Shown: positions 8,817-12,898 of the stretch, piece after piece
How positions within the stretch are numbered: the first letter of the stretch is position 1
How the letters are laid out: each line of letters starts with the position of its first letter
Assembly: GCA_026025795.1 (NCBI GenBank)
Contig: JAPEUG010000032.1
Coordinates: 57,681-77,680 of the forward strand
Direction of reading: 5' to 3'
DNA: 20,000 bases
From: Thelocarpon superellum
Taxonomy: Eukaryota
The notes under the pieces: generated by a model
The model's database searches: none
Told to the model about the DNA's origin: nothing
The model's input: the letters and a program-made list of their open reading frames with translations, nothing else
Made by a program: the position numbers and the translations under genes

Positions 8817-9360
8817 TCAACCCTTGCGTTCGATCTTGTTCAAACGCCGTGCAGTGCTGATCTGTGCATGGATCAGCGGGTGTGCGTTCGACGGGAGCAG
8901 CTAAGGTAGAAGCTCTCGTACCTGTGTCCTCGTTCGCTGTCCCCGCACCGGAAGATTCATCGCGTGTCTCTTTCCCCGATACGATCCCATGTCCCGCAAT
9001 CGTCGAATGTTCTCTCGCACTTTCCTTCGCAGATCGTTTTCGATCGTCATGTTCGAGAGCTCCGCCGTCAGATCCTGGATCTGTTTGTTGGCCAGAGCCC
9101 CAACGTGCGCGGTACGATGGATATGAAATCGCGCCATCAGGCGCTGTGATAGGCTCGGGCCGACGCCGTAGAAAGACTCCAAGGAGGCCTACGCAGAGCG
9201 AGCTTGTCAGTCCCCGGGCCTTGAGCTATATCATAGACAAGCCATCTGACAGGCCTACCTTCACCAGTCGCTGCTCGGGAAAGTTAACTCCCAGAATGAA
9301 GACCTGAATTCGTTCAGCGTGATGGACCTTCGCAACACCAGTGGCACGTCCACTTACCAT
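8817..9360 (-). CDS. SWS2: Mitochondrial small ribosomal subunit protein uS13m; complement(join(8817..8861,8922..9188,9259..9303,9358..9360)), 119 aa
   Basis: MVFILGVNFPEQRLVKASLESFYGVGP...[43 protein letters not shown], the S13 family signature. Three canonical introns; the first coding exon is the ATG alone. Confidence 0.92.
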
Positions 9361-9594: not shown

Positions 9595-10658
9595 ATGGCT
9601 ACTCTTCAAAGACTGTTGATCTCTGTGCTCGTTATCCTGACGGCAACCTTTGTGTTCCTGGCACAAACGTCCGAAGCTGCCAGAGGACCGAAGATCACCC
9701 ACAAGGTAACGCCCCTGGCGGCGTTCAGCGTCTTCTGCAAGGGCGGTCTACTGACGGGACAGGTTTTCTTTGACATTGAGCACGGCGACAAACCTCTCGG
9801 TCAGATTGTTATTGGGCTGTATGGAAAGACCGTCCCCAAGGTAAGATTGACCTATGCAGACGATCATAGTCATGCCGAGCTAACGTCTTGCCAGACGGCC
9901 GAGAACTTCCGGTAAACTCATCCTCCGCAAGGTAACTACAAATTGACATGCTTACCGCTTTAGTGCGCTCGCGACGGGAGAGAAGGGATTTGGCTATGAA
10001 GGCGTTACCTTCCACCGTGTCATCAAGAACTTCATGATCCAAGGCGGTGACTTCACCAACGGCGATGGTGAGCCGTCTTCCCTATGGAGCAGTCCTTATA
10101 GCGCTGACATCTTATCAGGAACGGGCGGAAAGTCAAGTATGAGTCTCTATGGTGGCTAGCCATCATCAGTGCTGACGTGTTCTAGTCTATGGAAACAAGT
10201 TCCCGGATGAGAACTTCAAGCTCAAGGTTCGTCCGGATGTCAATCGACCCTGCCATGGCCAATGTTAATCATCAACAGCATACCAAGAAAGGAGTGTTGA
10301 GTAGGTGATATCGTCGGGTGCTGTCCAGACTTCCCGTCAGACTGACACTTTCGGCACAGGCATGGCCAATTCGGGTAAAGACACGAACGGGTCACAGTTC
10401 TTCATCACGACCGCTATCACGAGGTATGTGGAGACGACCAGCAGGCGTAGCATTCTCCCCGGGTCCTGTCGGCTGACTTGGTGCAGTTGGCTCGATGGAC
10501 GTCATGTGGTATTTGGAGAAGTGCTCGAGGGCTACGACGTCGTCGAGGCGATCGAGGACGTGCCCAAGACGCCGGGTGACAAGCCCGTGGAGACGGTCAA
10601 GGTTGTCAAAAGCGGCGAGCTCCCGGTGCCGGAAGAAGGTATCCACGCGGAACTCTAG
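9595..10658 (+). CDS. cypB: ER peptidyl-prolyl cis-trans isomerase B (cyclophilin B), soluble HAEL-terminated isoform; join(9595..9705,9763..9840,9895..9911,9964..10067,10119..10136,10186..10226,10279..10300,10360..10423,10487..10658), 208 aa
   Basis: Signal peptide [28 protein letters not shown]; cyclophilin motifs [70 protein letters not shown]-terminal GIHAEL*. Eight GT-AG introns of 49-63 nt join in frame. Confidence 0.95.
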
Positions 10659-10718
10659 AGTGACGCTGTGCCGTCCACCACTGCTGCGCCGGATTGGCTG
10701 ATTCCTCGCCCTGTTAAG

Positions 10719-10915
10719 AAATCTTCGGTGCGGCTGCCTGGGCCGTGGCGGAATCGGAGCTGAAGAGCATCGCGATCAATGACCGGAGCGGCCTCGGCAT
10801 CGTGACCAAGGTGGGTTTGATGGTGCTGGTGGTGGGTGGGGTGGCCTACTATATCAGGTCGCGAAAGGCTCCCCGTACCTCGGGGACTGGGGGCTTGCTA
10901 GGTAACGGAATGTAA
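10719..10915 (+). CDS. cypB: Predicted alternative terminal exon of cyclophilin B encoding a transmembrane anchor (long isoform, ~267 aa)
   Basis: Intron 10639..10718 (GTATCC, branch GCTGAT 10697-10702, TAAG) joins in frame to EIFGAAAWAVAESELKSIAINDRSGLGIVTKVGLMVLVVGGVAYYIRSRKAPRTSGTGGLLGNGM*. Confidence 0.72.
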
Positions 10916-11042: not shown

Positions 11043-11643
11043 ATTGGTCCGAGGTCTAGAGACGGCAGGTCCGGGCTTCGATATATCTGGGACAGCCCCA
11101 CTAAAACCGGACCACGGATCACGTTCGGTTTCGGTCGACGAATACGAAATATCTTATGGTCAAATACTCTCGTAGGGATGGCGCTCATTTGCCATGAGAC
11201 CGAAGCATGAGCTCACAATGACATCGTGGCAAGCAACGTAGGAGCTGTACTCTGTAGACGAAGCCGCTCACGATCGAGGGACGCAAGGCAATGCGACTGC
11301 CTAAACGAGCCATGGGTTAGCCCCGTGCGTGATCCATTGGCGACCTCCCAAGTGGGAGATCCTGACTCAAGGGCCGAGTGGGGGTATGTTACTCCGGCTA
11401 TTGCTCAGCAGCCGGGACCGTAAACGCCGTCTCTACTCATCGGAATGGAGGCCCGGAGCTAAGGAGCTAAAGAGCTATGGCCGACCATATCGACGACCAG
11501 AGCGAGATATTTATACCTCGCCCTCCACGCCTTGTGGCGCCCTCGGACGCTCTCCATCTTCCAATCGACTCTGACTTTCTGTTCCCGCTGGGCATCTACA
11601 CGCAGCCTCGCGCACCGCCGCTTCTAGCCAACGTCCTCGCATC

Positions 11644-12898
11644 ATGTCTCTCGGCCCCGCCCCACCTCCCAAAAGCCTCCTTGGTCGCCATCGTGTCCTA
11701 AGTCCCACCGCGGGCGTCAAAGTCAGCCCGATATGTCTCGGTGGCATGAGCTTCGGAACGGCCTGGAAGGAGATGTTGGGCGAAGTGGACAAGAAGACCA
11801 CGTTCGAGATCCTGGACTTCTTCTACGACCAAGGGGGAAACTTCGTCGACACTTCGAGCAACTACCAGGATGAGCAGTCGGAACTGTGGATCGGTGAATG
11901 GATGGCAGGGCGGGGCGTCCGAGATGAGATGGTCATCGCGACCAAGTTCACCACGGGTTACAATTACAACTCTTCCCTGGCCCCGACAGGCATCCGATCC
12001 AACTTTGGCGGCAACCACAGCAAGAGCTTGAAGCTCGCGGTGGACGCCAGCTTGAAGAAGCTCCAAACCAATTACATCGACTTGGTACGTAACTGAGGCA
12101 GCACCGGTTCAGAGACCAAAGCCTGACTGCTACCTAGCTTTGGGTGCATTGGTGGGATTTCACCACCTCGATCCCCGAGCTTATGCAATCCTTGAATCGC
12201 CTAGTGCTCGCGGGAACGGTGCTGTACATTGGCATCAGCGACACGCCGGCGTGGATCGTGAGCAAAGCTAATGAATGTAGGCATCATGACGTAACCTGGC
12301 AGCTTGGCGGCGAGTAGGCTAACTTGGCGACGCAGATGCCCGAAATCACGGCATGGCTCAATTCTGCGCTTACCAAGGGATGTGGTCGGCTTCGTCGCGT
12401 GATTTCGAGCGGGATATTATCCCCATGACCCAGGCCGAGGGGATGGCCCTAACGCCCTGGGGCGCGCTCGGCCGAGGATTCTTCAAGACCGATGCCCAGC
12501 GCGCTGAGGGCGGCGGCCGCAACATGGGCGGTGCCACGGAGAAGGACATTGCCGTGTCCAAGGTGCTGGAGAGCATCGCCAAGCGCAAGGACACGGCCAT
12601 CACGAGCATCGCCCTGGCCTACGTCATGCAGAAGGCGCCATACGTGTTTCCCATCTGCGGCGGCCGCAAGATCGAGCATCTGAAGGGCAACATCGAGGCC
12701 CTAGCTGTGGATCTGGACGATAAGGACATCGAGGAGATTGAAAATGCCACGCCATTCGATATCGGCTTCCCACTCAAGTTCCTTGGCGGCAGCAACAACA
12801 AGTCTGGCGCTAAACGGCCCGGCGATGTCTGGCTCTCGAACCCCATTGGACATTTTGACCATGTCGAGGCCCTCAAGCCCATTCACCCCCAAAAATAG
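11644..12898 (+). CDS. Aldo-keto reductase, aryl-alcohol dehydrogenase (AAD / NorA-StcV-like) group; join(11644..12084,12138..12276,12336..12898), 380 aa
   Basis: [37 protein letters not shown] (catalytic D/Y), VIATKF (K), LWVHWWDF (H), [22 protein letters not shown] and [12 protein letters not shown]. Two canonical introns. Confidence 0.93.

Follow-up and report, generated by a model that had tools for sequence, protein, structure and literature searches.

The cyclophilin B gene and its alternative 3' end

The window analysed here is a 20,000-nucleotide (nt) stretch of Thelocarpon superellum DNA (contig JAPEUG010000032.1), and its forward strand carries, between positions 9595 and 10915, a gene for cyclophilin B, a prolyl isomerase of the endoplasmic reticulum (ER). 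The final codons and the stop of the short form of this gene lie inside a candidate intron, the removal of which would exchange the ER-retention-like end of the protein for a tail with one predicted membrane span. The comparison of orthologous loci indicates that this is a real, old alternative C-terminus, conserved Pezizomycotina-wide, and the gene probably encodes both a soluble and an anchored form in this lineage (probability of about 0.8). The features on which the argument is built are the following.

9595-10658, + strand: cyclophilin B gene, short form; nine exons, 208 amino acids (aa), PF00160 domain, ends in GIHAEL
9595-9705, 9763-9840, 9895-9911, 9964-10067, 10119-10136, + strand: exons 1-5, joined by coordinates
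10186-10226, 10279-10300, 10360-10423, 10487-10658, + strand: exons 6-9, joined by coordinates
9595-9597 and 10656-10658, + strand: start codon ATG and short-form stop codon TAG
10487-10638, + strand: part of exon 9 common to both forms; its last base is the first base of a Gly codon
10639-10718, + strand: candidate alternative intron of 80 nt; GTATCC start, CTGAT branch 17 nt before AAG
10639-10644, + strand: putative donor GTATCC, doubling as Gly-Ile-His coding sequence; off consensus at +5 and +6
10697-10702, + strand: branch-site-like GCTGAT, resembling the CTGAC/CTAAC of the eight constitutive introns
10716-10718, + strand: putative acceptor AAG; its AG (10717-10718) is the first downstream of the branch site
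10719-10915, + strand: coding part of the putative tail exon; 65 residues including a split Glu codon, stop TAA at 10913-10915
10793-10855, + strand: hydrophobic segment of 21 residues, a membrane span predicted by the Kyte-Doolittle scale
10856-10867, + strand: basic cluster RSRK directly after the span, a positive-inside flank

In its short form the gene encodes a typical fungal ER cyclophilin B. Joining of the exons gives a coding sequence (CDS) of 627 nt and 208 aa with no internal stops, and 186 of the 208 residues are identical to those of the relative P0001. The PF00160 (Pro_isomerase) family, with a curated cut-off of 21.7 bits, was matched on exon 9 (40.9 bits, E 3.1e-10) and exon 4 (35 bits, E 2e-8); for the relatives P0001, P0002 and P0102 the scores are 168-169 bits. 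Residues 1-29 form a hydrophobic N-terminus, in which the 19-residue Kyte-Doolittle mean (KD19) is 1.6 or more for segments starting at residues 1-9 and 11, and a signal peptide is predicted there from hydropathy alone. The soluble form carries an HDEL-like tetrapeptide, HAEL, immediately before the TAG. All eight constitutive introns are 49-63 nt long and have GT..AG ends, and their branch motifs are mostly CTGAC or CTAAC.

The position of the alternative intron ties the two ends of the protein together. With the Gly codon GGT at 10638-10640, G10638 would be the last base of the exon. The intron, if retained, supplies the last two bases of this codon, the IHAEL codons and the TAG; if it is removed, the ER-retention-like end is lost. 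The GT donor, the branch site and the AG acceptor are all in phase, with an open frame beyond the joint. There, G10638 and AA at 10719-10720 would form a Glu codon, after which the frame is open for 64 more codons from 10721, and a second TAA immediately follows the tail stop. The joined CDS measures 804 nt and encodes 267 aa with no internal stops. The first-pass annotation of this DNA had placed the GIHAEL end and the TAG in an 80-nt intron with exactly this donor, branch site and acceptor AG, and every one of its coordinates was right; the stop-free 65-residue tail that it described, with a spacer, a hydrophobic segment at 10793-10855 and RSRK, is likewise recovered in the joined CDS.

The added tail has the properties of a membrane anchor. 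Its hydrophobicity, which had been put forward for checking, amounts to KD19 values between 1.69 and 2.01 for residues 226-230 of the long form. KD19 reaches 1.6 nowhere else in this protein but in the signal peptide, and the stretch concerned, residues 226-248, corresponds to 10793-10855. The long form would be a type I single-pass membrane protein, with one span after the luminal domain and the basic flank on the far side of the membrane. In the window the tail frame differs from the CDS frame, and the only in-frame ATGs of the tail open reading frame (ORF) are at 10820, inside the span, and at 10910, the last codon, with none before the hydrophobic segment. Therefore, neither an independent start nor simple readthrough of the stop reaches the tail.

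The tail matched no Pfam family. A profile built from the 39 other tails of the alignment described below was run with filters off against every six-frame ORF of the window with 30 aa or more (n=423), and the ORF at 10718-10912 was its sole match (E 1.5e-7; next best 1.9). Moreover, BLASTP aligned the window tail with residues 206-274 of P0002 at 27 identities in 69 columns (39%, E 5e-9), the cytosolic end included, and both tails end alike in ...GGLL.

Two further ORFs adjoin the gene. The upstream neighbour (8901-9188, - strand) is of ribosomal protein S13 type and the downstream neighbour (11575-12096, + strand) of aldo-keto reductase type, both by the look of their translations only.

Conservation of the donor, the retention end and the tail exon

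A scan of metagenome contigs with exon 9 yielded 80 loci (L001-L080), 45 of which match the strict end motif SGE[LI]...G[ITV]x[AVL][ED]L-stop. If the GT within the Gly codon acts as a donor, an invariant synonymous GGT is expected at this site, and this is what was observed: the codon is GGT in all 46 strict-motif ends (45 loci and the window). The other Gly codons of exon 9, counted in the 39 ends (38 loci and the window) that match a fuller regular expression, served as a control and are GGC 121 times, GGA 42, GGT 36 and GGG 10 (n=209). GGT is also found in eight loci with variant ends (L018, L049, L050, L051, L052, L055, L058 and L066). Five of them, L050, L051, L052, L058 and L066, have ends of the KGSHEEL or KGSRDEL type, which resemble the AnCyp6 and AfCyp6 ends in the available part of the supplement of PMC1618848. 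The donor variants among the strict-motif ends are GTATCC, GTATTC, GTATTA, GTATCA and GTACCC.

The six residues borne by the intron are kept as protein, G-[IT]-[HRQK]-[AV]-[ED]-L being followed by the stop in 45 of the 80 loci, with xAEL, xVEL or xVDL at the position of HAEL. No such tail was found at the loci whose ends are typical of other eukaryotic groups (SKDEL, VHAEL, VQDEI, FDVSKD; L060-L080).

The sequence past the stop was searched over 700 nt for an ORF of 45 aa or more in which a segment with KD19 of 1.6 or above is followed by two or more Lys or Arg residues. Such a transmembrane-plus-basic ORF is present on the forward strand of 43 of the 44 testable loci, L012 and L039 having been left out for their short downstream sequence; the reverse complement gave 9/44 and shuffled sequences a mean of 4.8/44. 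The sole miss, L001, has a homologous tail with a weaker hydrophobic stretch. The ORF counted for L056 is dubious, its tail being like those of L042 and L046 behind a longer intron. The donor at the Gly codon and the downstream transmembrane exon, which the first-pass annotation had proposed to seek in orthologous loci, are both present there.

The acceptor side is shared as well. In-phase acceptors in the relatives define introns of 43-393 nt, and in most loci an AAG, CAG or TAG stands directly before the junction motif x-[LI]-[YF]-G-x-A. Among 37 loci with transmembrane tails, the branch-type match nearest the chosen acceptor, sought 4-30 nt upstream of it, is CTGAT in 24 and another sequence of the CTRAY type in 6, with no match in 7.

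In an alignment of 40 distinct tails that includes the one in the window (A1), the elements follow one another in a common order: the junction motif, an acidic spacer (often GDELDVT), a variable linker, the motif G-[LFW]-S-x-x-Q-K, which adjoins the membrane span, the span itself and a basic cluster. Many of the aligned tails finish in E-K-[ST]-[LM]-[AV], often with a preceding Tyr or Phe; this end is common, not universal, and may perhaps be an unrecognised cytosolic sorting motif. The E-K-S-[LM]-A-type end, which does not conform to the canonical KKXX or KXKXX signals, is absent from the window and from P0002.

The tail exon was compared in 14 locus pairs by the Nei-Gojobori method. The ratio of nonsynonymous to synonymous substitution rates (dN/dS) lies between 0.10 and 0.65 in the 11 pairs that could be evaluated, the other three being saturated at synonymous sites; these values are in the same range as those of the adjoining 50 cyclophilin-domain codons (0.02-0.32). 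By this codon-based measure the tail frame is under purifying selection.

Among 1.84 billion cluster representatives, the A1 profile matched 394 at E <=1e-3 and 102 at E <=1e-10. The best 150 of the 394 matches (P0121-P0270) are all 45-191 aa long, and the 12 that were inspected are ORFs called by themselves over the tail exon; several of these begin with the cyclophilin end translated out of frame. These small-protein calls look like a systematic annotation artefact. The tail exon is thus widespread, and it is mostly mis-annotated or passed over. In the ESM Atlas the best scores for the P0002 tail were 0.80 and 0.78, below the lead threshold.

Forms in which the tail is already joined to the cyclophilin are found in relatives. 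Longer proteins were sought with exon 9 (56 aa), and the best 120 of the 1237 matches are mostly 208-aa short forms, with two long-tailed proteins, P0002 and P0102, among them. P0002 has 278 aa, is named 'MAG: Peptidyl-prolyl cis-trans isomerase B [Thelocarpon impressellum]' at NCBI, and shares 92% identity with the query over the 91% covered. P0102 has 287 aa on a contig of 985 nt, and hence is an intronless ORF. Both diverge from the short form exactly at the Gly, after which come a spacer, a hydrophobic stretch and a cluster of basic residues. A third joined form, L057, is an intronless CDS on a 1028-nt contig, in which the tail is contiguous after ...PPE-G.

The retained form was met in L025 and L037, contigs of about 1 kb on which, according to tblastn with P0001, the CDS is intronless, the alternative intron is kept and the sequence runs 30-50 nt past the tail stop. 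The ~1-kb intronless contigs are probably transcripts, because introns are absent from them and yet present in related genomic contigs (L010 and L028 compared with L025). If so, both RNA forms would exist in the relatives, and the 3' untranslated region (UTR) of the short-form mRNA would carry the tail exon. The objection raised in the first-pass annotation, that transcripts might be polyadenylated ahead of the tail, is answered for the relatives at least, on the premise that L025 and L037 are transcripts.

Some loci depart from this arrangement. In L040 (1648-1995) the length of the alternative intron is a multiple of three and the frame is open after the TAA, which puts the tail in frame with the stop; it could in principle be reached by splicing or by stop readthrough. 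L055 (720-1000) keeps the donor position inside an ...EGTRDDL end with the intron retained, and L053 (600-850) and L054 are contiguous forms with the donor position as in L055. The tail of these three has about 25 residues and no hydrophobic segment, and in another lineage, it seems, the splice device is present with a tail that is not a membrane anchor. In L048 (730-1010) the CDS is intronless and the cyclophilin, which ends in ...PEEDAA-stop, lacks both an HDEL-like signal and a GT donor; it is nevertheless followed by a gctgat...cag sequence resembling an acceptor site and by a transmembrane tail ORF of the usual kind.

Proposed mechanism and competing explanations

The comparison brings out two mutually exclusive, conserved C-termini around one intron, with an invariant donor GT and with joined and retained forms in relatives. 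One pre-mRNA would accordingly yield two cyclophilin B proteins. When intron 10639-10718 is kept, translation would run through GIHAEL to the TAG and give a prolyl isomerase that is soluble in the lumen and carries an HDEL-like signal for retrieval, the tail exon becoming part of the 3' UTR. When it is removed, the retrieval signal and the stop would be lost and the 65-residue tail gained, in which a brief conserved junction motif and a spacer precede a single membrane span and a cytosolic flank of basic residues; together with the signal peptide, this tail would give a type I membrane protein with the isomerase domain in the lumen. The splicing would be partial, with both forms made, because the donor must also encode Gly-Ile-His (or Gly-Thr, Gly-Ser) and cannot match the consensus at +5 and +6. 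We infer the use of the splice in this organism, the topology and residence of the anchored form and the ratio of the two forms. The first-pass annotation had read the locus in the same way, as one gene with a soluble HAEL form and an anchored form, and this reading gains support from the invariant donor, the conserved tail exon, the joined relatives and the homology of the P0002 tail.

Several observations weigh against this mechanism. The donor of the window has no G at +5 and the acceptor is AAG, and both are weaker than in most of the introns of the gene, because of which splicing in Thelocarpon superellum could be rare; the argument for its use in this organism is a comparative one. The window tail is the shortest in A1 and has no E-K-S-[LM]-A end, and it could be decaying in this lineage, though P0002, also from Thelocarpon, shares the ...GGLL ending. 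The ~1-kb intronless contigs show no poly(A) at their ends. The loci are not phylogenetically independent, and L022/L023/L024, L013/L017 and L050/L052 are near-identical or identical, though between many locus pairs synonymous divergence is at or near saturation. Finally, a shared-word search with the tail alone against proteins of at least 113 aa found nothing at E <=0.01, and one with the tail region of P0102 found P0102 itself only. The emptiness of these searches is explained by tails that diverge too fast for word seeding, and the profile search worked.

The alternative that survives best is that the arrangement is an inherited relic here, the intron being unspliced or spliced at noise level, so that only the soluble HAEL form matters. 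The weak splice sites and the short window tail with its deviant end favour this explanation. The intact frame of 65 codons with its span and basic flank speaks against it, as do the GGT, the branch motif and the first-AG acceptor, all of which are present, and the similarity to the nearest tail, that of P0002, extends into the cytosolic end, which argues for continued constraint. A relic is for these reasons considered unlikely. The opposite explanation regards the anchored form as the principal or sole functional product and the HAEL form as a reading of unspliced pre-mRNA; it can draw on an intron that bears all the signals of an ordinary one, and on one public annotation, P0002, that gives the long form alone. 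It is nevertheless highly improbable. The intron-borne end is conserved as protein, unlike intron sequence, and among the best 120 of the 1237 matches 44 proteins of 205-214 aa on contigs of up to ~1.35 kb represent the intronless short form against one long one, P0102, a tally skewed to the short end, which was included in the query.

The downstream ORF might also belong to a separate gene for a small membrane protein, or be reached by readthrough, frameshifting or reinitiation. Gene callers often call it alone, as in the best 150 of the 394 profile matches, and the tail of L040 is in frame with the stop. In the window, on the other hand, the tail is out of the CDS frame and its only in-frame ATGs are the two late ones; the stand-alone calls inspected start in the out-of-frame cyclophilin end, the contiguous joined forms begin the tail exactly at the Gly codon, and the invariant GGT is explained by a donor and not by readthrough. 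On the grounds of frame, ATG positions, Gly-exact joints and invariant GGT, a stand-alone gene and readthrough are rejected for the window, and this explanation retains a very small probability. Least probable of all is a chance ORF in the 3' UTR, which shuffled sequence would provide in about 11% of cases and which is refuted by the conservation tests, namely the GGT in 46/46 ends, the transmembrane ORF in 43/44 loci, the aligned tails, the dN/dS values and the BLASTP and profile homology.

An anchored cyclophilin B would lack the signal for retrieval in the lumen, and the E-K-S-[LM]-A end common among relatives does not read as a canonical di-lysine signal. The chance that the anchored form reaches later secretory compartments is put at even at the most.

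Relation to known systems and biological meaning

The short form has close counterparts in other fungi. NcCyp3 and GzCyp4 have 207 aa and end in EGIHVEL according to the supplementary alignment of PMC1618848, in the part available, and this is the same type of end as in the short form of the window; NCU01200 is listed as peptidyl-prolyl isomerase B in the available part of PMC5050212. As in the window, the fungal ER cyclophilins B (A. nidulans CypB, which is AnCyp6; N. crassa NcCyp3, or NCU01200; G. zeae GzCyp4) combine a signal peptide, a PF00160 domain and an HDEL-like end. In the accessible parts of PMC1618848 and its supplement there are short forms only, and terms for isoforms, splicing or transmembrane segments are absent from the supplementary files.

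A switch from an HDEL-like end to a transmembrane end by splicing was described for fungal cyclophilin B in none of the full-text literature searched, the scope of which did not extend to subscription papers on A. nidulans and A. niger CypB. Nor is it mentioned in the available portions of PMC1618848, PMC3688495, PMC13162259, PMC3577648, PMC11694984 and PMC2447506. The annotation of P0002 carries a joined tail homologous to that of the window, as an annotation without experiment. The long form is known from partial database annotation and is absent from the literature searched, and the earlier suggestion that the arrangement is conserved but little studied fits with this outcome. For certain fungal PPIB entries UniProt distinguishes a Long from a Short isoform.

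A parallel in working principle is offered by an unrelated protein. In the immunoglobulin mu gene a donor in the last exon lies upstream of the soluble tail and its stop, and its use swaps in transmembrane exons; the choice between secreted and membrane mu in B cells is coupled to competing poly(A) sites. The window shares the principle of this system, and differs from it in that the retained, transcript-like L025 and L037 run past the tail exon; therefore, plain intron retention seems to be enough. Fungal glycolytic enzymes provide another parallel, as their peroxisomal forms with a type 1 peroxisomal targeting signal (PTS1) arise via alternative splicing or readthrough. In these enzymes, as in the window gene under the proposed mechanism, an alternative 3' event changes a C-terminal sorting signal and leads to dual localisation. 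The glycolytic enzymes add a peroxisomal signal, whereas the window gene would swap an ER retrieval signal for a membrane anchor within the secretory pathway.

In budding yeasts the same division seems to have been reached by other means. S. cerevisiae Cpr4 is described in the available text of PMC1618848 as a secretory-pathway cyclophilin with a putative transmembrane domain, found beside the soluble, HDEL-type Cpr5, and Cpr4/Cpr8 are placed there in Group H, confined to Saccharomycotina. In yeast the membrane and soluble forms are separate genes, whereas in the window one gene would give both.

A bolder reading, which we hold as tentative and, taken as a whole, rather unlikely, is that of an ancient Pezizomycotina-wide regulated switch. 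The suboptimal donor would be tunable by secretory load, temperature or ER stress and would split the foldase into a mobile luminal pool and a tethered pool; the tethered pool, which would lack HDEL-type retrieval and bear a conserved end motif of its own in the cytosol, would act at another point along the secretory pathway; and the in-frame tail of L040, open to readthrough, the span-less short tail of L053/L055 and the two genes of budding yeasts would be its lineage variants.

Protein-changing conserved alternative splicing is regarded as rare in fungi, with few old cases in which both products are clearly under selection. In the gene described here, each of the two C-termini is kept at the protein level, and the GT of the donor, at a synonymous position, does not vary among the orthologous ends examined. 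Summarizing, the cyclophilin B gene of Thelocarpon superellum would be an unusually clean case of one gene for a soluble and an anchored ER foldase. For annotation it matters that gene callers mostly give the short form and sometimes turn the tail exon into an orphan small protein. The finding bears on folding in the secretory pathway of filamentous fungi, including industrial secretors and pathogens that are usually cited by the short form, and on the evolution of sorting signals, for which splicing would have been used in Pezizomycotina and gene duplication in budding yeasts.

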